Virus record (IMG/VR): IMGVR_UViG_3300031992_000046
Span: 1 to 64,000 of that record
DNA: 64,000 nt
Direction: 5' to 3' (one strand)
Source: a virus
Lineage: Duplodnaviria; Caudoviricetes
Made by a program: the position numbers and the translations under genes. A model generated the notes under the pieces. That model made no database searches. It saw only the letters and a program-made list of their open reading frames with translations, and was not told where the DNA came from. Below are positions 1 to 54,058 of this stretch, piece by piece. Numbering within the stretch: position 1 is the stretch's first letter; the number at the start of each line of letters is the position of its first letter.

Positions 1-27
1 GGCGGCGGCAGTTTGCTGTCGCGCCCT

Positions 28-69
28 GCGCCCTGCGGCGTGCGCCCTGCGGCGTGCGCCCTGCGGCGT
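28..69. repeat. Tandem repeat, 3 x 14 bp GCGCCCTGCGGCGT (partial copy at 21-27)
   Basis: Exact copies at 28-41, 42-55 and 56-69. Confidence 0.9.
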
Positions 70-102
70 GCCGCTGTCGCGCATTTTAAGGCGGCAAATA
101 GG

Positions 103-139
103 CAAAAAGAGGGCGCGCCGCTGTATGGCGGCGCGCCCT
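103..139 (-). terminator. Intrinsic terminator of the Ala-rich gene
   Basis: 12-bp stem AGGGCGCGCCGC/GCGGCGCGCCCT (110-121/128-139), followed on the minus strand by CTTTTT, about 30 nt after the stop at 172. Confidence 0.8.
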
Positions 140-171
140 GCTAAAATGCGCGTATTTTGCGTTATATGCGC

Positions 172-2175
172 TCACAGAAGCGTCAGCAATTCAATAAAGG
201 TTTTATCGGCAATGTCTGCCGCTTCAAGTTTTGGATACTGCGCCGCGACAGCATCACGCGCGGCGGCTGTTGCTTTTTTCAATGCGCGATTTACTGCGTC
301 TTTACTGATATTTAGCGCGGCGGCGGCTTCCCTATATGATGCGCCCTGATAGACTAAACGCGCGGCGTTTTGTACGGATGGCGTCAAATCTTTTAACAGC
401 GCGTCAGCGGCGGCAGTAAACTCGCCTTTTAATGCTTCTGCGCGGCGCGTTTTGCACTTGCGCGCGGCGGCGGCTTTCACGGCGGCGGCTGTTGCTTCTG
501 CTTCTGTCCATTGCACGGCGGCGGCGGCGGCTGTTGCTTCAATGCTATGCGGCGCGGCGGCTGTCAGCGCGGCGGCAAAATGCACGGCAAGGCGTGCGCG
601 ATGCTGTTGTACGGTCTGATACTTTACGCCCATTTTAACGGCGGCAGGGCGTACAGCACCGCAGGTTTTCCACAGGGCTGTCAAGGCGCGCTTCTGCGCG
701 GCTGTTATGCTGTCAGCAAACAGCGGCAAGGCGGCGGCAATATTCGCGGCGCGGCGGCTGTCATATTCGCGCGCGCTGTCGGTATTGTCGGCGATATCCT
801 GCGGCAGTTCTTCAAGCGACAGCGGCGGCGCGGCGGCTTCTGCGCGTACTGCTTTTATCTGCCCCATATACGCAGATACAGCGGCGGCGTGCGTTGAAGC
901 GGCGGCGGCGGCGGCTTCTGCATCATAACGCGCGCCCTGCAAAACGGCGGCGTGCGTATTTGCGGCGGCTTCTGCGGCGGCGGCTGTCAAATCTGCTAAA
1001 TCTGCATCGTCTGCCCATTTTGCGGCGCGCGCGGCGGCGTACAAACGACATTGTAACGGCGTACCCTGCCGCATCATTTGCGCGCGTATTGTTGCAAGCG
1101 CGGCGCGGCGTGCTTCCGTCTGCATCATTCGCGCATCAGCGGCGGCGGCTTCTGCGGCGGCGCGGCGTGCTTTTTTTGCTTCTGCGTACTGCGGCGCATC
1201 TTCTCTTACACCTTTATATACGGCGGCGGCTTCTGCCGCTTCTGCGGCGGCTTCTGCGGCGGCGGCAATATTGTACACGGCGTTTATGCGCTGTACAGAA
1301 TTGTCTGTATCTGCGTACAGCATCGCAACAACAGCGGCGGCGTGACGGCGTGCGGCGGCAAGCGCGGCGGCAGGGCGTGCCGGAATAGGTTTTATACCTA
1401 ATGAATAACAGAAGCAGGGCGCGGCTTCTTCTTTCGCTTCTTCTGCCGCTGTCAGCGCGGCGGCGCGTGCAAGCGCGGCGCGTGCTGTTGCTGTTGCTTC
1501 TGCTTCTGTACCTGCGGCGGCTTCTGCGGCGGCGGCGGCGCGTGCCGCTTCTGCGGCAAGGCGGCGCGCGCGGCGTGATTTGTCGGTATGAAGATACACT
1601 AAAACAATAACTTCAGTATCAGACAGCAGGGCGCGGCGTTTTGTTTGGGCGAGCAGTACGCGCGCTCCTGCCGCTTCTGCCTTTTCGCGCAGTTTACGCG
1701 CGGCGGCGCGTTCTGCTTTACAGATATTAAAGGCGGCGCGTGCGGCTTCCTTTTTTTCTTCTTCTGCCGCTGTCAGTTTGTCAAGCGCGGCGGCGGCTTT
1801 TTTCGCGGCGGCTGTATCTGTCGCGGCAAGCGCGGCGGCGGCTTCTGTCAGCGCGTGCGCTTCCTTCTGCGCGGCGCGTGCTGTTTCAAGTGCAAGCGCG
1901 GCGCGTGCGGCGGCGGCTTCTGCATCCTGCGCGCGTGCTTCTGTTTGCGCGGCTTCTTCTTCAAGTGCAAGAAGCGCGCGGCGTGCTTCTTCTTGTACTT
2001 TTACGGCGGCGGCGCGGCGTGCTTCTTCAAGCGCGGCGGCTGTAGGCAGGGCGCGGCGTGCATCGCGTGCGGCAAGCGCGGCAATTATGCGCGCGGCAGT
2101 TTGCAGGGCAAGGCGTGCGGCAGGGCGTGCGGCTTCTGCTGTTTGCAGGGCGTGCAGGGTAATGCTGTTTTTCAT
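172..2175 (-). CDS. Ala-rich protein (667 aa) with sigma-70/ECF-like C-terminal HTH domains
   Basis: Long ORF; ATG at 2175 after AAAGAGG; consensus promoter upstream and terminator downstream; two region-4-like HTHs (ITAAQKRALTALW..AAVKMGVKYQTVQQH and LTPSVQNAARLVYQGASYREAAAALNISKDAVNRAL). Confidence 0.7.
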   Translation of the reverse strand: MKNSITLHALQTAEAARPAARLALQTAARIIAALAARDARRALPTAAALEEARRAAAVKVQEEARRALLALEEEAAQTEARAQDAEAAAARAALALETARAAQKEAHALTEAAAALAATDTAAAKKAAAALDKLTAAEEEKKEAARAAFNICKAERAAARKLREKAEAAGARVLLAQTKRRALLSDTEVIVLVYLHTDKSRRARRLAAEAARAAAAAEAAAGTEAEATATARAALARAAALTAAEEAKEEAAPCFCYSLGIKPIPARPAAALAAARRHAAAVVAMLYADTDNSVQRINAVYNIAAAAEAAAEAAEAAAVYKGVREDAPQYAEAKKARRAAAEAAAADARMMQTEARRAALATIRAQMMRQGTPLQCRLYAAARAAKWADDADLADLTAAAAEAAANTHAAVLQGARYDAEAAAAAASTHAAAVSAYMGQIKAVRAEAAAPPLSLEELPQDIADNTDSAREYDSRRAANIAAALPLFADSITAAQKRALTALWKTCGAVRPAAVKMGVKYQTVQQHRARLAVHFAAALTAAAPHSIEATAAAAAVQWTEAEATAAAVKAAAARKCKTRRAEALKGEFTAAADALLKDLTPSVQNAARLVYQGASYREAAAALNISKDAVNRALKKATAAARDAVAAQYPKLEAADIADKTFIELLTLL

Positions 2176-2249
2176 TTTTCTTCCTCTTTCCGTCTGCGCG
2201 TGCGGCGCAGACAATAAAATTTTGTGCGGCGTTTGTGCCGCCGTATGAT

Positions 2250-2278
2250 ATTATAGCAAATCTTTTTCGATTTGTCAA
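2250..2278 (-). promoter_or_regulatory. Consensus sigmaA/sigma70 promoter with extended -10
   Basis: Minus strand TTGACA (2278-2273), 17-nt spacer, TATAAT (2255-2250) preceded by TGn. Confidence 0.9.
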
Positions 2279-2621
2279 AACTTTTTTTCGGCGGCGGCGA
2301 AAGTGCTTTTTTTTCGCTTCAGCACATACGGCGGTAGTTATGGTATTTTCGACGATCTGAAGCAGGGAAAGACCCACAGGCGTCTCTCCTCCCACCTAAC
2401 CCCTCCCCAAAATCCACGCCCTCCCAACGCCCGTAACTCCTTGCGCTGCAAGGCCGCCGGTGAGCCAGCAGAGTAAAAATGAACGATCAGCTGCTGCCTT
2501 CGAAATCGTCGGCTTTTAGAGGTAACAACGCCATCAACATCATTTCGTCTTTTTGTCCGGACAGGCGGTCCGGTGCCCGGTTCTCCAGTGAAAAAAGTTA
2601 GAAGAAATTTGCCCGAAACGC

Positions 2622-2650
2622 TTGACAATTATAGCACATTGGATTATACT
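2622..2650 (+). promoter_or_regulatory. sigmaA-type promoter
   Basis: TTGACA (2622-2627), 17 nt, TATACT (2645-2650); predicted start about 2657. Confidence 0.8.
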
Positions 2651-2656
2651 ATTAGT

Positions 2657-2895
2657 AGGGCGGAAGCCCACATCCCGGCTGTCGGCCCGACGAGACTGTT
2701 GGTACGCACGACACCTCGTCACAGTACCGCGCCTGCGGCGGCTAACGCAGGCAGCTGACAGCCGGGGCACCCGGGTAGGTTTTAAACCATTTTTAACCTC
2801 TGGAAGACACACCCGGGCACCCGGGTCGCAGGAGCGACGAAGTCGGGTTTCTGACAGCCCCGCAACTGTGCTTTCTTATGTACAACCAGAGATTG
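2657..2895 (+). ncRNA. Candidate structured non-coding RNA or long leader, family not recognised
   Basis: Begins at the predicted TSS; stems 2658-61/2666-69 (GGAA loop), 2674-86/2754-66 (13 bp), 2689-94/2715-20, 2731-37/2746-52, 2770-76/2811-17, 2825-29/2834-38; possible pseudoknot 2701-05/2724-28. Confidence 0.55.
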
Positions 2896-3052
2896 TTTTT
2901 CTCTTTAAGGCCGTGGCCGCTATCCCTTGTGCCACAAGGATTCTTTTTTCATTTTACAACCCTCATGGTTGTAAAACGTTGTAAACCCCTGTTTTGGACA
3001 CCCGCTATTTTTACTTCGAATTTCACTCTCACTGCTTTTGGAGGTGTGTATC

Positions 3053-3880
3053 ATGGCAGTCATTCTTGAACACGATAACTCCCGCTTTGGAACCGGTGGC
3101 AGCATCAACCTCGCCGCCTTGAAAGGGAACAACGCTCGCCGGAACGCTACCGGACTCATCGCCCCCGCCGCTCAGGAGACAAAGAGCACCGTCCTCGAGG
3201 AGCACTCCGCTGAGCCTATTAAGAACATGGAGGATATCATCCGCATCTCTCAGTTCCTAATCGAGAACGAACGGTATCGCGATAATATGCTCTTCATCGT
3301 CGGGATCAACTTTGGGCTGCGTGCGTCCGACTTGCTCGAGCTTCGGTTTTTTAACCTTATCACAGACTCGTTCGCTTTCCGCGACTGCTTCCCGGTGTTT
3401 GAGAAGAAGACTCGCCACACGCGTAAGCGTAAGCGCAACCGCTACGTCACTATCAATAACGCAGTCGTCGACGCCGTCACGCTTTATCTGGAACATACCC
3501 CCGGCGTTACGCTCTCCGATTATATGTTTACCTCGGAGAGTAACCACGGGGCGAATAAGGGGGAACCGCTCACCGCCTGGTCGGTCAACCGTATCCTGAA
3601 GGGTATCGCCCGGGATCTCGGTATCACCACCCGCGTCAGCACCCATACGCTTCGTAAGACCTTCGGTTATCATCAGATGGTCATGGGCGGAAACAGTCAG
3701 CGCACCCTGCTTCTGCTTCAGAAGATCTACGGCCACTCGACTCCCGCCCAGACTCTGGAGTATATCGGTATCACCGACGAGGAAATCTCCGAAGCTTATA
3801 ACCGCCTGAACCTCGGCTCGTCCACCGCGAACTACCTCGTTGACTCGCGTATGGTAGAACGCGATGCCGAGGTCGGATGA
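3053..3880 (+). CDS. Tyrosine recombinase
   Basis: GLRASD, HTLRKT, GHS and catalytic Y (TLEYIG); GGAGG before ATG 3053. Confidence 0.92.
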   Translation: MAVILEHDNSRFGTGGSINLAALKGNNARRNATGLIAPAAQETKSTVLEEHSAEPIKNMEDIIRISQFLIENERYRDNMLFIVGINFGLRASDLLELRFFNLITDSFAFRDCFPVFEKKTRHTRKRKRNRYVTINNAVVDAVTLYLEHTPGVTLSDYMFTSESNHGANKGEPLTAWSVNRILKGIARDLGITTRVSTHTLRKTFGYHQMVMGGNSQRTLLLLQKIYGHSTPAQTLEYIGITDEEISEAYNRLNLGSSTANYLVDSRMVERDAEVG

Positions 3881-3898
3881 AGATTGGGGGGTGATTGA

Positions 3899-4237
3899 AT
3901 GTATATAGAGTGGAGTCACGACTTAGAGTGGGGTCACGACATAAATTACGACTTAGAGTGGGGTCACGACATAAATTATGCCCACAATACTGCCACTACT
4001 GTCACTACTCCCACTACTGCCACTGCCACCGGTAGTGGATTGTCGGGATGGTTGGATTCGGCTTCGACAATTCTGTATCCGACAAACGATTGGCGGCACG
4101 CCGCCGAATTGTTTCGGCAGTCCGGTGCGGGGCTGTGGTTATTTAACGAGGACAGTGGAAAGGTGACGACGATAAATTGGGTTGACGACTCGTTCGCCCC
4201 CGCGTCGCCCGAAGAGGTCGCTGAACTGTACGCGTGA
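3899..4237 (+). CDS. Hypothetical protein with DLEWGHDINY repeat and Thr-rich linker
   Basis: ORF with GGGGGTGA SD; C-terminal motif shared with the next gene. Confidence 0.65.
   Translation: MYIEWSHDLEWGHDINYDLEWGHDINYAHNTATTVTTPTTATATGSGLSGWLDSASTILYPTNDWRHAAELFRQSGAGLWLFNEDSGKVTTINWVDDSFAPASPEEVAELYA
3918..3977 (+). repeat. 2 x 30 bp tandem repeat ACGACTTAGAGTGGGGTCACGACATAAATT
   Basis: Exact copies at 3918-3947 and 3948-3977; degenerate partial copy at 3906-3917. Confidence 0.9.
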
Positions 4238-4250
4238 GAGGAGGGGCCGG

Positions 4251-4436
4251 ATGCCAGTTTCAAATGAGACCCTTAACCTGTTTTTGCATGTAGTAGAGGA
4301 CTATAATATTTCTGCTGAAGATTTCGGGTCGTTGGTGACGCAATGGGTTAACATCGCTTCGGCCGTTGACGCAGAGCCAGTTGTCGACGATTTTAAACCA
4401 GCCTCCATGCGGAAACTGAAGAGGCTGTATGAATAG
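4251..4436 (+). CDS. Small hypothetical protein (61 aa)
   Basis: GGAGGGG SD before ATG 4251; operon spacing. Confidence 0.7.
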   Translation: MPVSNETLNLFLHVVEDYNISAEDFGSLVTQWVNIASAVDAEPVVDDFKPASMRKLKRLYE

Positions 4437-4449
4437 GGGGTAGGGTTCA

Positions 4450-4704
4450 ATGACTTCAGATGAATTGGATAAGATGAGTGTGTGTCAGCTCGCCGAACAC
4501 ATAGAGTATCTCATCTGGAAGCTGCGCTATAAGATGCACGAGGAGGTATTTTATAACGATGTGCTACAGGATGATGGCAAGTATGCCAGATGGCTGGCTG
4601 AATACTTCGACGACATTGACAGGGCGGAAATGCTAATCGCTGCATTTTCCGAATGGGATAACATCAAAACATCGTACGAAGTGAACCGTACGGGTGAATT
4701 ATGA
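4450..4704 (+). CDS. Hypothetical protein
   Basis: ORF in a tight operon with a G-rich SD. Confidence 0.7.
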   Translation: MTSDELDKMSVCQLAEHIEYLIWKLRYKMHEEVFYNDVLQDDGKYARWLAEYFDDIDRAEMLIAAFSEWDNIKTSYEVNRTGEL

Positions 4705-4717
4705 GAGGAGGCGTATA

Positions 4718-5170
4718 ATGGCCGAAAACAGAGATATGAGGTGTGTTGCGCCTGGGGGCGCCGGTAGTCAGGGTAACATCAGTATGGTGATGTCTCATTA
4801 CCAGTGGGAGGGCGACACGCTCCTCGAAGATATGAGCTTAGAGATACGCGACGAGCGCGACCGCGTGATATCGGAGCTGGTGTGTAACCACTTCCAAATC
4901 GATTTGAGCGACCTCGGAGAGTGGGCAAAGCAGAAGAAAATGGGTCGGCAACAAGTGTACGACGGTATCGTGCTCGGTACGCCGGACGGACGCGAGTTTT
5001 ACGTCAGAGATATTCCGGCATTCGAAGAGGTGCGGGCAGAGATTTACGACAAAGAAACGATTGTAAGGGACGCCACGGTTACGATATGGGAGAACACTAA
5101 GACCGGGGCAGTATCGTTCGGCTGGAGCGGCGGGGAAGTCGCGGAGGACGAAAGTGGTACATGTATGTGA
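4718..5170 (+). CDS. Hypothetical protein
   Basis: AGGAGG SD before ATG 4718. Confidence 0.7.
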   Translation: MAENRDMRCVAPGGAGSQGNISMVMSHYQWEGDTLLEDMSLEIRDERDRVISELVCNHFQIDLSDLGEWAKQKKMGRQQVYDGIVLGTPDGREFYVRDIPAFEEVRAEIYDKETIVRDATVTIWENTKTGAVSFGWSGGEVAEDESGTCM

Positions 5171-6404
5171 CGCAGTGATGGGCTCCGGCAAGACCGAGAG
5201 CACTATCACATATATCAACGAGCACCGCGATTTTAAGTACGTTTATATCACCCCTTATCTCACTGAAGCGACGCGTATCAAAAAAGGGTGTCCCGACTTA
5301 CACTTCGTAGAGCCGAGCAATAAGCTGAAAGAGTTCAACTTCAAGAAGACACTCCACACCGCAGCCCTCATTCGTGAAGGGCATAACATAGCGACTACCC
5401 ACCAGGCGTTCAAGAACTACACTCACGAGACGCTCGAAGAGATACGCCGGCAGGGATACGTTCTCATAATAGACGAAAATGTCGACGTGCTTGAATCATT
5501 TGAGTTTCACCCCGACGATTTGCAGCTGGCTCTCGACGCGGGGTACGTTGCGGAGAATGATTCGATATACAGGATCTCCGAGCGGGGAGATATATATAAA
5601 GGAAGCGCGTTGCGCGATATGTTTAGCCTGCTCCGTTCACGCGAGCTTATGAAAGTGGTTGACGGCAAAGACAACAGCCTCTTCTTTTGGGCTCTTCCGC
5701 CCGACTTGCTCACTTCGTTCCGCGAGGTGTTCATCCTGACGTATCTGTTCAGTGGGCAGAGTCTGCATCACTTTATGAAGATATACGACATCCCATACGA
5801 GTATATCGGTATTGAGAAAACGGACAGCGGGTTCAGGTTCGGGCCATACCCGGGATATACACCGGATTACATATCCCATCTTGGCGAGAAGTTACATATT
5901 CTCGACAACGATAAGTTGAACGGGGTTGGGGACGACCCTTACGCCCTCTCGATGAGCTGGTATGAGAGAGGGGGCGACGGTGTGGCTCAGCTCCGCAGGA
6001 ACGTTGCGAATTGCTACAATAATATATGGCGCGACGTGCCCGCGGATAAACGGCTCTGGGGTGCTTACAACGGGGCATATAAGAAGATAAAGGGCAAGGG
6101 GTATGCGCGGTCGTTTCTGACGTTCAATGCGAAGGCGACCAACGCATATCGTGATAAAGACTGTCTGGTTTACATCGTAAACCTTTTCATGAACGTGAAC
6201 GAGAAAAAGTTCTATACGCTGCACGGCCTCGAAGTGGACGAAGACAGGTTCGCTCTTTCCACGATGATACAGTGGATATGGCGGTCGGCGATCAGGGAGG
6301 GAGGCGAGGTTAGCCTTTACATCCCCAGCAAGCGAATGCGCAGTCTGCTTGAAGGGTGGATTGAGCGTGTCGCAAAGGAAGGAAACACGGTCTATGAACG
6401 TTAA
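5154..6404 (+). CDS. SF2-like helicase / P-loop NTPase
   Basis: Walker A DAVMGSGKT, Walker B IIDE, C-terminal QWIWRSAIR (motif VI-like). Confidence 0.75.
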   Translation: MVHVCDAVMGSGKTESTITYINEHRDFKYVYITPYLTEATRIKKGCPDLHFVEPSNKLKEFNFKKTLHTAALIREGHNIATTHQAFKNYTHETLEEIRRQGYVLIIDENVDVLESFEFHPDDLQLALDAGYVAENDSIYRISERGDIYKGSALRDMFSLLRSRELMKVVDGKDNSLFFWALPPDLLTSFREVFILTYLFSGQSLHHFMKIYDIPYEYIGIEKTDSGFRFGPYPGYTPDYISHLGEKLHILDNDKLNGVGDDPYALSMSWYERGGDGVAQLRRNVANCYNNIWRDVPADKRLWGAYNGAYKKIKGKGYARSFLTFNAKATNAYRDKDCLVYIVNLFMNVNEKKFYTLHGLEVDEDRFALSTMIQWIWRSAIREGGEVSLYIPSKRMRSLLEGWIERVAKEGNTVYER

Positions 6405-6639: not shown

Positions 6640-9378
6640 GTGATTTGTATCAGCAAACAACTCGCGTGTCAGAAATTCATCTTGAAGCTGAACAGCTCAC
6701 GGCTGCGCAACTCACGGTGGAAGCTGACTCTGCCGCTTCAGGAAGCGCGAAGGAACGACGAGGTGATTTCAATCGCCGACAGTCAAATCCTTCGCTGGAT
6801 AGACGAACTTAACGGGGTGACTGACGCGGACGCGCAGGCGCGCACGATAAAGAGCGCGATAAGAAGACTGCGCAACGAGGAGAACAGTGTAAAGAACAAG
6901 CGCGAGATACGCCAGCTTTACGAAGATCTCGACCGCCTTCAGTTTCAGCCCGACTATATGTGCCTGATTATCGACAGGGAAAAGGATTACTACAGAGCCT
7001 GTCGTGGGTTCACAATAAACAACGTAAGATACCGAAGACTACTCGGTACTAATGGCGGCATCAAGAACTCTACAATCGTCTTTGTCAGTGAAAGACTCGT
7101 GGACGAATTACGACGCCGCATAGAAAATGACAGAGACCCCGGCAAAGAGCTCGTGCCTGCAAAGCTCGAGGCGTACAAAGCGCTCACATGCAGCGCCTCG
7201 GTTCCGGTGTCTATGCCGAACGGGGTTATCGTCGTAGACGATGTAAACACAACATTCCGGTCGGATATCATCTATCTCACCGACGAGATAGCCGGCGAAC
7301 CGCTTATGGAAACAAAGCGTGGCGAAGAGGTAACGATAGATGCGTCCGACGGCTGCGGGATAATGCTTCCGTCGCTTGCGGAAAGGTGGAGCCGGGAGCT
7401 GGGGCTCGGATATACTGTGTCGGGACTCAACACGAGATGGTCATTCGAGAAGGGTATGGTATTCACATTCGACTTCTTGGACTTTGCCGATAAGGTCGCA
7501 GGCAAGTATACCGTTACAGATGCCTGGGGTGTTGAGAGAGACGTCAGGGATGCAGAGCTGATACTCACTACTTCAATGCTGAAGTTGTGGGACAGCTACT
7601 CAAGCATAGAGGACTACGTGGAGAAATCTACGCGTAACGGGTATACGATAGGTATAGCAAAGACGTGCCCTGAAGAACTTGAGAATGAGCGGAGTCTGAA
7701 CTATCAGTTCATCCAGCCCTTTGACTTATCGGAAGATGACGTTGACCGGCTCATAGAGCCGACGATGAGCGAAATATACGACGTGTTGACCGGAGACTGG
7801 CGTAGCGCGATAGTATTCTTAAAAGGAAGCGTTCTCAACGAGAACAACGTCGCGCGAGCGCCCAACGATTTTGTAAAAGGGATAATGATAGACCCCGCCC
7901 TCCACGACGACCCGTTTGTCTTGAACTCCATTTATCAAATGATAAAGAACAGGATTAACGAGGCGAAGGTGGGGGTCTGCAAGATTCACGGCAACTACTC
8001 GATAGTTTCGGGAGATCCGTATCTCCTGTGCGAGTCCTTCTTCGGGCTTGAACCAAGAGGGCTGCTCAGGCCGGGAGAGATTTACAACCGCTATTGGGCG
8101 GACAGAGAAAGCGACGAGCTGATTTGCTTCCGCGCCCCGATGAGCTGCGCGGAGAACATAAGGAGGGTAGTCCCAACAAGGTCAGAGGCTGTGCGTTACT
8201 GGTATCAGTATATGAACTCCTGTACGGTATTCAACGGGTGGGATACGGCGTGCATTGCACTCAATGGGTGTGATTATGATGGCGACCTTGTAATGTTGAC
8301 CGACAATCCGGTCTTACTTGAGAGGTTCCGCGAACTGCCGGCTTTGATGTGCGTACAGCGCAAGGCAACCAAGACGGTGCCCACAGAAGAGGATTTTATC
8401 CGTTCCAACATCGAGAGTTTTGGAAATGAGATAGGCCAGACGACCAACTGGATAACGAGTATGTACGAGGTGCGCTCGGGATACAAGCGCGGCTCGAAGG
8501 AATATGAAACGCTGTCATACAGAATAAGATGTGGGCAGCTCTACCAGCAGAATGCAATAGACAAGGCAAAGGGCATCGTGTGCAAGCCGATGCCGAAGAC
8601 GTGGTATAACCGCCACGAGATCAACACAATAGAGGACGAGCAAGAACGTTCGTTCAACAAAAGCATTGCCGCGGACCGGAAGCCGTACTTTATGAGGTAC
8701 ATCTACCCGGCGCTGATGAAGCAGTATCGCAACTATGTTAAGAACTGCGAGTGCAACGCATACCGAGAGTTCGGGATTGGGTTGGACGAGCTAACATCGT
8801 TGCCCGCGGAAGAAATGACAGACCGCCAGAGAGAATTCGTATACTACTACTATAAGGGGATGCCGGTCGGCATAAACGACTGCGTAATGAACCTTATATG
8901 TAAGAAGTTCGAAGATAAGTTCGACAGGTTCGGCGCAAAGCGTAACGGCGGTGTGGAGTTTGACTACAGGCGACTGAAGTGCCCCGGAGTAGAATACAGT
9001 GTGCGGCAGTATCAGTCGATAGAAAAAATATACAAAGATTATAATCGAAGAGTGAAAAGCTTCGCGGTGTTTCAGAAATACGAGGGCGTAGACGAATACG
9101 ACTCGCTCAGCGCGAAGATAACGATGGACGAAGAGTTCCGAAAAGAGTGCGATATGATTTGCCCCGACCGGCACGCGCTCTGTAATATAATTTTGGATAT
9201 GTGCTACCGCAAGGCGTCGACCAAATCCTTCGCGTGGTCGATGTGCGGGAGAGAAATGATAGAGAACCTGCTGGCGAATAACGGCGGAGTCGCGAGTTAC
9301 CCCGAGTTGGACGAGGACGGAGACTTCGAGTTTGGCGGCAGCAGATTTACAATTAAAACGGTGGAGGTGTCTGCATGA
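6640..9378 (+). CDS. YonO-like single-subunit two-barrel DNA-dependent RNA polymerase (true start probably ATC at 6649)
   Basis: Catalytic GCDYDGD; SDGCG, KGM and FRAP motifs of the RdRP-like two-barrel family; about 910 aa; upstream of the late genes like SPbeta yonO. Confidence 0.9.
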   Translation: MICISKQLACQKFILKLNSSRLRNSRWKLTLPLQEARRNDEVISIADSQILRWIDELNGVTDADAQARTIKSAIRRLRNEENSVKNKREIRQLYEDLDRLQFQPDYMCLIIDREKDYYRACRGFTINNVRYRRLLGTNGGIKNSTIVFVSERLVDELRRRIENDRDPGKELVPAKLEAYKALTCSASVPVSMPNGVIVVDDVNTTFRSDIIYLTDEIAGEPLMETKRGEEVTIDASDGCGIMLPSLAERWSRELGLGYTVSGLNTRWSFEKGMVFTFDFLDFADKVAGKYTVTDAWGVERDVRDAELILTTSMLKLWDSYSSIEDYVEKSTRNGYTIGIAKTCPEELENERSLNYQFIQPFDLSEDDVDRLIEPTMSEIYDVLTGDWRSAIVFLKGSVLNENNVARAPNDFVKGIMIDPALHDDPFVLNSIYQMIKNRINEAKVGVCKIHGNYSIVSGDPYLLCESFFGLEPRGLLRPGEIYNRYWADRESDELICFRAPMSCAENIRRVVPTRSEAVRYWYQYMNSCTVFNGWDTACIALNGCDYDGDLVMLTDNPVLLERFRELPALMCVQRKATKTVPTEEDFIRSNIESFGNEIGQTTNWITSMYEVRSGYKRGSKEYETLSYRIRCGQLYQQNAIDKAKGIVCKPMPKTWYNRHEINTIEDEQERSFNKSIAADRKPYFMRYIYPALMKQYRNYVKNCECNAYREFGIGLDELTSLPAEEMTDRQREFVYYYYKGMPVGINDCVMNLICKKFEDKFDRFGAKRNGGVEFDYRRLKCPGVEYSVRQYQSIEKIYKDYNRRVKSFAVFQKYEGVDEYDSLSAKITMDEEFRKECDMICPDRHALCNIILDMCYRKASTKSFAWSMCGREMIENLLANNGGVASYPELDEDGDFEFGGSRFTIKTVEVSA

Positions 9379-11815: not shown

Positions 11816-12838
11816 GTGGCAAGAAAGACGCAAATGAATAAGATAACGACGCCTGAGCTCCTGTCGCGTATTAACTCCGAAAACAAGTCGCTGCTTAACG
11901 ACTTCCTCGAATATCTGAGGTCAACTGGAAGGAGCGACGGAACGATAGCGTCGTACCAGAACGACATTGAAATCGCATTCGTGTGGAATCTTGAGCACAA
12001 CGGCGACAAGTCGTTTGTCGAGTGGACGAAGCGTAATGTTATCGCATATCAAAACTGGCTGCTTAACACTAATAAGAACAGCCCCGCGCGAATCCGAAGG
12101 CTAAAGGCGGCACTGTCTTCAATGAGCAATTACATTGAGAACTTGCTCGACGACGAGTATCCGAACTTCAGGAATATCATCAACAAGATAGAGAGCCCTG
12201 CGAACGCACCCGTTCGCGAAAAAACGGTGCTGACGGATGAGCAGGTTAAGTCGATGCTCGACGCTTTAATAAAAAGGAACAGAATAAAGGCGGCCTGTTA
12301 TATTGCGCTTGCCGCATACGGGGGAAGACGTAAGTCTGAAATATGCAGGTTTAGGGTCGACGATTTCGCCGACGACAAACTTGTGTGCGAGGGTTGCCTC
12401 TGGAAGAGCGCGCCGATTAAGACTAAGGGGCGTTCGCGTGGAAAGTTCATCCCCTGTTATACACTTGTTAAAAAGTTCAAGCCCTACCTCGATTTATGGC
12501 TGGCAGAAAGGAAACGTCTGGGTGTTGAAAGCGTGTGGCTTTTTCCAGCCGACGACAACCCCAACGAGATGCTGAAGATATCCACTGTCAATAGCTGGAT
12601 GAAAACAGCCTCGAGGCTTTCGGGGCTCGATATATATACGCACAGCTTTCGCCATTTCTATACGACAATGTTATCTAACGAAGGGATACCCGACGGGGTA
12701 ATCAAAGAGATACTGGGATGGGAAGATGTGTCGATGGTCGCAGTTTATAATGATAGGTCGACCGAAGATACGCTGGATATGTATTTCGGCGCGGATGGAG
12801 TAAAACGGAATGTCGCGAAGGGTCTGACCGATCTTTAA
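11816..12838 (+). CDS. Tyrosine recombinase (XerC/D-like)
   Basis: SAM-like N-terminus; GRRKSE, KTKG, HSFRH, LGW, VAVY. Confidence 0.9.
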   Translation: MARKTQMNKITTPELLSRINSENKSLLNDFLEYLRSTGRSDGTIASYQNDIEIAFVWNLEHNGDKSFVEWTKRNVIAYQNWLLNTNKNSPARIRRLKAALSSMSNYIENLLDDEYPNFRNIINKIESPANAPVREKTVLTDEQVKSMLDALIKRNRIKAACYIALAAYGGRRKSEICRFRVDDFADDKLVCEGCLWKSAPIKTKGRSRGKFIPCYTLVKKFKPYLDLWLAERKRLGVESVWLFPADDNPNEMLKISTVNSWMKTASRLSGLDIYTHSFRHFYTTMLSNEGIPDGVIKEILGWEDVSMVAVYNDRSTEDTLDMYFGADGVKRNVAKGLTDL

Positions 12839-53422: not shown

Positions 53423-54058
53423 TCAAGTGCAAATGTCTACTATATGTTCGCACAGTTCAATCGGTATCTTAGCTCTCTCACGTGCATTTTGCAGACCCTG
53501 AGTACCGGTCTGTGAGCCGCGAGGAGCCGCAACGTGGCATCTGTCACCCTGTTTGCAGGGCGGTTTGAATTGCGGGTCGGGGTGGTTAGTCCATATATCA
53601 GTCGGCTTCATCCTTTTCTCGCCGTACTGACAGTAAGTCACCGTATATCGCGGCAAATCTTTGACAAAATCCATTTTCCGCATTCCACCGCAAGGATTTT
53701 CAATAAAATAATACTTTGGGTTGAGTTCTTTTATCAGTTCAACAACGTGTGAGTTGATAGTATCGCACTGCGCTGCGTATTCCGATATCGGGTCTAAGTT
53801 ACCCGTCTCCGGATTTTTTCTTCTGTGGCGGCTGATTGCCGCTACGCTGTACGAAGTGCAGTCAGGAGACGCCCAGATGACGTCGGGGCAACCTCCACAG
53901 AGTTTAATTATATCATCGGCGGTCAAAGCACCTATGTCGGCGCACAGAGTCGGCTCGAATTCGGGGTTCCAGTCAACAGAATAGACTTCGTGCCCTCCTC
54001 GCCGCTCGAACGCGTTGGCAATAGACTTCGTGCCGCAGAACAGGTCTAAAATTTTAAT
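53423..54058 (-). CDS. Short C5 cytosine DNA methyltransferase (ATT start inferred)
   Basis: Frame extends upstream of the ORF call to KILDLFCG (motif I); SPDC (IV); IENP (VI); GGAGGG-N6-ATT. Confidence 0.8.
   Translation of the reverse strand: MKILDLFCGTKSIANAFERRGGHEVYSVDWNPEFEPTLCADIGALTADDIIKLCGGCPDVIWASPDCTSYSVAAISRHRRKNPETGNLDPISEYAAQCDTINSHVVELIKELNPKYYFIENPCGGMRKMDFVKDLPRYTVTYCQYGEKRMKPTDIWTNHPDPQFKPPCKQGDRCHVAAPRGSQTGTQGLQNARERAKIPIELCEHIVDICT

Follow-up and report, generated by a model that had tools for sequence, protein, structure and literature searches.

In phages T5 and BF23, sensitivity to restriction arises only from sites in the first-entering DNA, which is followed by a non-coding border rich in repeats (PMC10644984). 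The same principle, with recognition sites in early-injected DNA, has been described for Murciavirus (PMC12455610). A third point of reference is provided by the SPbeta-like phages, in which packaging starts in a divergent intergenic region beside the yonV operon. SPbeta seems to restart at its packaging site (pac) for each head, which would give a fairly fixed end (10.1101/2021.11.22.469490). This report concerns a block of about 2.3 kb at the left of a 64,000-nucleotide stretch of viral DNA (hereafter the window; positions 1 to 64,000 of IMG/VR record IMGVR_UViG_3300031992_000046, a contig of 100,409 bp). The block holds one minus-strand transcription unit with its promoter, ribosome-binding site, open reading frame (ORF) and terminator, and it is almost free of common restriction-site words. 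The phage is uncultured, SPbeta-like by its genes, and one of rumen Clostridia.

The initial annotation of this DNA had listed the missing words and a sharp boundary, and both are exact on recount of positions 1-2335. GATC, GGCC, AGCT, CATG, ACGT, GCWGC, CCWGG, GGNCC and GANTC do not occur at all. There is a single CCGG (1380) and a single TCGA (2267), the latter inside the spacer of the promoter. Other words are allowed, namely GCGC (85 times), CGCG (80), GTAC (13) and TGCA (16). The listed words resume at 2349 and 2354, right after the block. The two longest site-free gaps of the contig are 0-1380 and 1380-2267, and the third is 303 bp. The purged stretch does not begin at position 1. It runs from contig position 100,201 to 100,409, through a tandem array, and on to 2335. 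It is nearly coextensive with one transcription unit, although the untranscribed array and 60 nt upstream of the promoter are likewise without sites. GC content is 61% in the block compared with about 50% in neighbouring DNA, and only 873 distinct 6-mers are present where equal-sized blocks elsewhere have about 1635. The depletion is confined to a single, sharply bounded unit. A chimeric or misassembled contig, which the initial annotation named as a ground for refutation, can be rejected for the boundary at 2335. An independent Logan unitig from the source sample covers 48-3947 with zero mismatches, and four relatives (L010, L013, L034 and L057) bridge the same architecture.

Controls are needed because the composition of the encoded protein is extreme. 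About 36% of its residues (238 of 667) are alanine (Ala), and a longer frame that starts at TTG contains 59 Arg and 51 Glu. In a first control, synonymous codons were permuted inside the ORF in 2000 shuffles. This gives an expectation of 83.1 +/- 7.3 sites (minimum 62), mostly GCWGC (32) and GGCC (20.6), followed by GGNCC (6.8), CATG (4.7), CCWGG (4.7) and AGCT (3.5). One site is observed. A stricter control, a synonymous shuffle in which every dinucleotide count is also preserved, still predicts 45.3 +/- 4.3 sites (minimum 27). In that control only GCWGC (0 observed, 29 expected), GGCC (0 and 5.1) and AGCT (0 and 2.9) are individually significant, with GATC, GANTC, TCGA, CCWGG, GGNCC, CATG and ACGT expected at most 1.5 times each. 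Across 50 non-overlapping ORFs of the genome the median ratio of observed to expected sites is 0.79. The purged ORF stands at 0.01 and is the sole outlier, since the other 49 span 0.53-1. The depletion therefore persists under amino-acid-preserving shuffles, the comparison by which the initial annotation proposed to judge it, and it reflects selection on DNA words beyond amino-acid composition alone.

How is a gene kept so clear of sites? One clue is the use of Ala codons. GCN is the next codon for 109 of the 238, but for none of the 60 GCA and 8 GCT codons, so the earlier remark that Ala runs avoid GCA and GCT before another Ala holds for all 68. Codon context is close to deterministic. Of 121 GCC codons, 102 precede a GCN codon; GCC never stands in front of CGC, where GCA or GCG is used instead, and ahead of GA there are 24 GCA codons and 2 GCC codons. 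A second clue is that words of mixed composition have little opportunity to occur. GATC, ACGT, TCGA, GANTC and AGCT are jointly expected about 10 times in the ORF, compared with about 44 per 2335 bp in the remaining window. In other words, the Ala-rich composition cuts the expected number of mixed-composition words and codon context then strips the GC-only words to which that composition would give rise.

The ban is broader than the list of palindromes. An unbiased scan revealed non-palindromes that are purged equally, including (observed/expected) CCCG (0/18.5), CCAG/CTGG (0/12.6), GCCA/TGGC (1/17.4), CCGA (4/18.9), CGAAG (0/12.4) and CCCGC (0/14.1). Where reverse-complement symmetry is testable it is found, with both orientations of CCAG/CTGG and of GCCA/TGGC purged, which fits a reading of duplex DNA. 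Palindromes are in excess among the words with zero counts here (5 of 14 palindromes, as opposed to 5 of 119 non-palindromes), and the trend is the same in relatives L004, L010 and L015. Hexamer palindromes, with GCGCGC and CGCGCG excluded, number 7 in the ORF against 24 +/- 4 under codon permutation. The remaining genome, all hexamer palindromes counted, has about 31 per 2.5 kb.

There is also a link with the genome as a whole. When words outside the block are ranked against a Markov expectation, the lowest 4-mers are CTAG (0.00), CATG (0.41), GATC (0.42) and GGCC (0.43), all four of them palindromes, and the lowest 5-mers are GGWCC (0.24), GGCCC (0.46) and CCWGG (0.61). CTAG does not occur in the 100-kb contig, where about 84 would be expected per strand. 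The block is wholly without all seven of these words, although for CTAG, CATG, GATC and GGCC the depletion extends to the remaining genome and is not a property of the block alone. The block seems to be the extreme case of a pressure felt less strongly across the remaining genome. CTAG, GATC and GGCC are missing from most relatives too.

Relatives were gathered with the neighbouring YonV-like gene, which yielded 24 IMG/VR loci. GenBank phages include no close DNA relative, and a search of IMG/VR with peptide patterns found no protein relatives. HMMER recovered eight homologues among 1.8 billion representative proteins, all of them Ala-rich. In most of the 24 loci the contig ends 2.5-4.7 kb upstream of the YonV-like gene, inside a tandem array. 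In each relative this place is taken by a minus-strand gene behind a TTGACA-17-TATAxT promoter; a terminator and then the array follow, and a word of about 18 nt is often common to the 3' flank and the stretch ahead of the promoter. Homology of the cassette genes shows in a shared Y..I...RAVR motif and a C-terminal helix-turn-helix (HTH). Their compositions differ widely. An Ala-rich group (the window, P0002-P0009 and their loci) has 27-35% Ala and a gene GC of 63-68% in flanks of 49-50%. Others are Thr-rich (L004, L010 and L065) or Lys/Ile/Asn-rich (L013, with 24% GC in a genome of 39%). Over 18 distinct cassettes, the difference in GC between cassette and neighbour gene ranges from -15 to +11 points, and it reaches +19 in L033.

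The search for the same block in related phages, suggested in the initial annotation, shows that the purge recurs in homologous cassettes but with different banned lists. Independent homologues with the same synteny and 35-39% amino-acid identity are purged of different words. L032 has 35 GGCC where 34 are expected, and no GCWGC (9.8 expected) or CCWGG (9.5). L033 has no GGCC (24 expected) and no GATC (3.8 expected, and common in the flanks), with TCGA, CATG and ACGT at expectation. L007 keeps CATG and ACGT and is without GGCC, CCGG and TCGA. Counts of all sites (observed/expected) are likewise low in L034 (8/58), L010 (0/12.6), L013 (0/8.3), L004 (6/25) and L015 (3/17). Such differences from one homologue to another point to selection on DNA targets rather than to simple-sequence drift. 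Among the 18 distinct cassettes the median ratio of observed to expected sites is 0.44, whereas the gene on the far side of the border has a median of 0.74 (Wilcoxon p = 0.0013), and a ratio below 0.3 is found in six cassettes and in no control gene. The cassettes also move. Phages from bovine samples are about 95% identical at 2380-3900 and wholly different to the left of about 2380. Therefore, cassettes have been exchanged at the border. The suggestion that site avoidance reshapes the protein itself fits the divergence in composition between the Ala-rich window and the Lys/Ile/Asn-rich L013, but such divergence is not proof of it.

The lineage-specific lists, the palindrome bias, the reverse-complement symmetry and the overlap with genome-wide avoidance together argue for selection against duplex-DNA nuclease targets. 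With moderate confidence, we propose that the block is an immediate-early, self-contained cassette that has been rewritten by selection against the targets of host nucleases, mainly restriction enzymes, to which it would be exposed early. Two devices would accomplish this. A low-complexity Ala/Arg/Glu style (GCC, CGC and GAA codons) would remove most mixed-composition words. A rigid codon context (GCC only before GCN, GCA before GAA and CGC, GCG before C) would then remove the GC-only words.

What if the missing words are simply a by-product of simple sequence? The gene would then encode a fast-evolving, low-complexity helical protein, its Ala runs growing by triplet slippage and short duplications, and words would be missing by descent with no selection on sites. 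The low variety of 6-mers and the short tandem repeats in the ORF speak for this. It would also account for non-palindromes being purged as strongly as palindromes, and GGCC and GCWGC, which make up most of the expected sites, are tied to the coding of Ala runs. Slippage does act on this gene family, since the L019 cassette protein (171-1340, minus strand) has a long C-terminal EKNEK simple repeat. However, GGCC is at expectation in L032 (35/34) and absent here (0/20), with GCWGC missing from both. The last Ala codon of a run switches systematically with the codon that follows it, which slippage does not predict, and AT-rich and mixed homologues without Ala runs are purged as well. Nor does it account for the excess of palindromes among zero-count words or for the fact that the words absent from the block are the most depleted genome-wide. 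We consider this explanation unlikely.

A related idea is that the avoided words are targets of modification rather than cleavage. Methyltransferase targets might be kept off the promoter and gene, or the cassette might be made invisible to Type IV nucleases. BF23 and T5 do avoid host methylation (PMC10644984). The present phage has a C5-cytosine methyltransferase-like gene at about 53.4-54.06 kb, and most banned words contain C. The ORF in question aligns only to profile positions 1-110 of 324 and may be truncated or divergent (G004 has a similar partial match); the genome has no N6/N4 methylase and no member of the Dam-type or TGT/DpdA families. However, across five genomes the presence of a C5 methyltransferase does not co-vary with the use of GCGC and CGCG; G003 uses these words and is without the gene, and G001 is without both. 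Genome-wide avoidance of GATC, CATG and CTAG fits classic restriction. Modification also gives no reason for this unit alone having to remain unmodified, and it is distinctly unlikely to be the cause.

Foreign origin offers another route to an odd vocabulary, in that a recently acquired cassette would carry the word content of its donor. The GC contrast and the occurrence of different cassettes at the same border in close relatives are in keeping with this. Against it, all eight of the protein homologues mentioned above are Ala-rich. Two of the three homologues whose DNA was retrieved share the synteny and the contrast between gene and flank, and the third is on a 2.4-kb contig without context. 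No donor lineage is seen and the swapping occurs within the clade, so that recent acquisition has little probability. Least probable is avoidance at the RNA level, in which the early transcript would be kept clear of words cut by an endoribonuclease of the host or of a defence system; the purge does nearly coincide with one transcription unit, but the bans are reverse-complement symmetric where testable and enriched in palindromes, and untranscribed DNA, namely the array and 60 nt ahead of the promoter, is also site-free. Two other candidates were dropped: a diversity-generating retroelement, as there is no template repeat, and avoidance of protospacer-adjacent motifs, as GG is abundant.

The anatomy of the cassette is set out with its surroundings in the following table.

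Table 1. Features of the cassette and neighbouring genes, in window coordinates.
Feature	Position	Strand	Remarks
Last visible unit of tandem array	1..77		Same array makes up the last ~150 bp of the contig (100,262-100,409), beyond the window
Intrinsic terminator	103..138	-	Predicted from sequence: 11-bp GC stem, 5-nt loop, T-run
Purged ORF, 667 aa	172..2175	-	Two putative sigma region 4 / LuxR-type HTH units in C-terminal third
Ribosome-binding site GGAAAGAGGAA	2181..2191	-	Predicted from sequence; 5 nt upstream of ATG at 2175
Consensus sigma-70 promoter	2250..2278	-	Predicted from sequence: TTGACA 2278-2273, 17-nt spacer with TGn, TATAAT 2255-2250
Word CGGCGGCGGCG	2289..2300		Upstream of promoter; common to every array unit
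Conserved border element	2303..2349		Inverted repeat GTGCT...AGCAC, then GGCGGTAGTTATGGTATTTT; purge stops here
Divergent promoter	2622..2650	+	TTGACA-17-TATACT; predicted to drive integrase, YonV-like, YonO-like RNA polymerase operon
Direct repeats GGGCACCCGGGT / CACCCGGG	2750..2830		In long leader between rightward promoter and integrase gene
Tyrosine recombinase gene	3038..3880		Phage_integrase; rightward arm
YonV-like gene	5154..6404		
YonO-type polymerase ORF	6640..9378		PF05183, 47 bits (cut-off 23.8)
Tyrosine recombinase gene	11816..12838		Phage_integrase; rightward arm
C5-cytosine methyltransferase-like ORF	53423..54058	-	

A perfect host-type promoter is as expected of an immediate-early gene, and the sequence supports this assignment. 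The T5-type pre-early regions are likewise marked by promoters for the host RNA polymerase, to which the promoter found here corresponds in sequence. The same promoter layout is present in L010, L013 and L034. These three cassettes are also flanked by words of about 18 nt that are clearer analogues of CGGCGGCGGCG, to which the protein of the cassette could itself bind. Seven copies of the 8-mer GCAGGGCG, which is the array core CGCCCTGC in reverse complement, lie inside the ORF (644-2145) and encode Arg-Pro-Ala. These copies could be internal binding sites or could arise by chance in low-complexity DNA. The ORF also contains short tandem repeats.

The array consists of units of about 55-83 bp, each with 1-3 copies of the 14-mer GCCCTGCGGCGTGC. 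In the source sample its repeat unitig has a depth of 211 whereas the phage has 23, and therefore about nine copies of the array unit are present. A joint from 77 back to 1 is also seen. The contig starts inside an array that is shared by both of its ends, so position 1 is an assembly break. This has a bearing on the initial annotation, which had placed the block at the leading end of the DNA: with a self-closing map and a break in a tandem repeat, position 1 carries no weight. The array breaks assembly here and in nearly every relative; it is a scaffold N gap in L034 and the reported terminal repeat of the complete contig G001.

On the other side of the cassette is the border element, with the consensus of an inverted repeat followed by GGCGGT(A/G)GTTATGGTATTTT. 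It occurs in 15 stretches from IMG/VR and in 44 from metagenomes. The arms of the inverted repeat covary in several relatives (CTATGT/ACATAG, AACATTCA/TGAATGTT, GTGCT/AGCAC and GTCC/GGAC). Dozens of phage contigs from gut and rumen have the inverted repeat together with GGCGGTRGTTATGGTATTTT at the border of the cassette. The element is a candidate packaging or regulatory site. The rightward promoter is about 270 bp beyond it. As to the repeat-rich non-coding border at which injection stops in T5-type phages, the cassette has about nine array copies on one side and a conserved inverted repeat with a motif on the other. The SPbeta intergenic region contains no copy of the border motif. An Rfam search of positions 1-5000 returned matches at chance level only, and none for the leader repeats.

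The encoded protein is probably an HTH DNA-binding regulator, perhaps sigma-like, and its probable targets are the cassette's own repeats. Pfam gives a borderline HTH at residues 597-635, where Sigma70_r4_2 scores 24.0 bits (cut-off 25.7). In a family of 14 members Sigma70_r4_2 matches 5 (best 1.5e-6) and Sigma70_ECF matches 3, and sigma region 2 has no Pfam match in any of the 14. A profile search of the PDB with the short subfamily matched LuxR/SdiA-type and SigH HTH domains equally. PHROG contains no family for the protein at E <= 0.1, its Pfam matches are confined to HTH domains, and there is no homology to the T5 pre-early proteins A1, A2 and Dmp. AlphaFold models the C-terminal half as all-helical with a predicted local distance difference test (pLDDT) score of 76; the model of the short subfamily has a pLDDT of 57. 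The weak top rows of a Foldseek search with the C-terminal half are sigma factors and LuxR-type HTH domains, and these are not significant.

The assignment of the phage draws on several genes. Besides the YonO-type polymerase there is a YonV homologue (tblastn to SPbeta yonV, 34% identity over 97% of the query; 34-36% overall), and YonV_C is annotated on the corresponding genes of relatives. Relatives are assigned to metagenome-assembled genomes (MAGs) of Ruminococcus, Tyzzerella and other Clostridia, with Limimonas among the host MAGs; L057 lies at the end of a 265-kb Tyzzerella MAG contig. Two tyrosine recombinase genes make a temperate lifestyle likely. The AT skew and gene orientation flip at about 51,500, and the map has two arms that part at the border of the cassette and meet near 51.5 kb.

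Why would only this unit be purged? The unit comprises a predicted host promoter, one gene for a putative HTH regulator and a terminator, and beside it is an array in which the regulator's binding sites probably lie. The most likely reason under our proposal of nuclease avoidance is that it meets host nucleases before the remaining genome is protected. By analogy with T5, the cassette might adjoin the site of packaging or opening and be the first to enter; alternatively, its expression might have to come first. Synteny makes the border element a candidate for an SPbeta-type packaging site, in which case the cassette would lie in the terminal 'plus' segment. Entry of the cassette ahead of the remaining DNA is plausible from T5 logic and from the position of the SPbeta packaging site. 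It might be taken further, for a clade of SPbeta-like phages in gut and rumen Clostridia, to a swappable 'stealth' pre-early module beside the packaging or opening site. The module would combine a regulator gene with its cognate repeat array, and it would be written in a lineage-specific minimal vocabulary (GC/Ala-, AT/Lys- or Thr-rich) that leaves host nucleases no target, with the array acting as an entry pause. We regard this extension as tentative and rather doubtful. To our knowledge, T5-like two-step injection has not been described for phages of Firmicutes.

Several observations do not fit easily with an early-exposed cassette under nuclease selection. The rightward early operon is unpurged despite its strong host-type promoter. 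Many of the banned words are non-palindromic, match no nameable enzyme and have a normal frequency in the remaining genome. Several relatives (L008, L021, L019, L060 and L063) are barely purged. The contig closes on itself via the array, and none of the related contigs ends at the border element. Processive headful packaging, as in some SPbeta relatives, would leave most particles without a fixed first-entering end. Finally, nothing in the PDB reaches E <= 0.001 when the C-terminal-half model is compared with it by Foldseek.

The cassette is of wider interest in several respects. It offers a clean natural example of selection at the DNA level that seems to govern the codon context as well as the amino-acid make-up of a single protein family. 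If the 'stealth' module were real, restriction pressure would be able to alter the make-up of an entire family of proteins. Should the cassette be the DNA that is exposed first, the list of its banned words would read out the nucleases met in rumen Clostridia, and the total purge in the cassette, set beside the partial one elsewhere, would measure how much early exposure matters. A practical lesson for annotation is that odd low-complexity blocks beside repeat arrays are not to be dismissed as misassemblies.

How does the cassette compare with described systems? A close parallel is the first-step-transfer DNA of T5 and BF23, which is similarly bounded, has host-type promoters, is without targets that are tolerated elsewhere and has a repeat-rich non-coding border alongside (PMC10644984). 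However, the cassette has one gene instead of two operons and no pre-early homology, and it belongs to an SPbeta-like Clostridia phage with integrases. The purge is also far broader here, with non-palindromes in addition to about a dozen 4-5-mers, and it is accompanied by an extreme amino-acid composition; the evidence comes from assembled contigs. In Murciavirus (Autographiviridae), sensitivity depends on where a recognition motif lies within the diversified early region that is injected first, and early regions differ between close relatives (PMC12455610), much as the cassettes do. That case is an experimental one with a single Type I motif in T7-like phages with known entry, whereas the present one, from an uncultured phage, consists of statistics on the purging of many words. 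Genome-wide palindrome avoidance by phages is a further parallel, since CTAG, CATG, GATC, GGCC, GGWCC and CCWGG are under-represented throughout this genome. The block differs in their total absence and in its additional loss of GCWGC, CCGG, AGCT, ACGT and TCGA, which are normal elsewhere. SPbeta itself shares the YonO-type polymerase, the YonV homologue and the divergent non-coding region beside the yonV operon (pac between yonP and yonR), but it is a distant relative with no counterpart of the cassette or the border motif, and the packaging site is an analogy only. Set beside T5, BF23 and Murciavirus, for which site-free first-entering DNA is documented, the description of this block in the initial annotation as a candidate for an undescribed system was overstated. 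What is new here is the clade, a single-gene swappable cassette with its array, private vocabularies that reach opposite GC extremes in a single protein family and the completeness of the purge.

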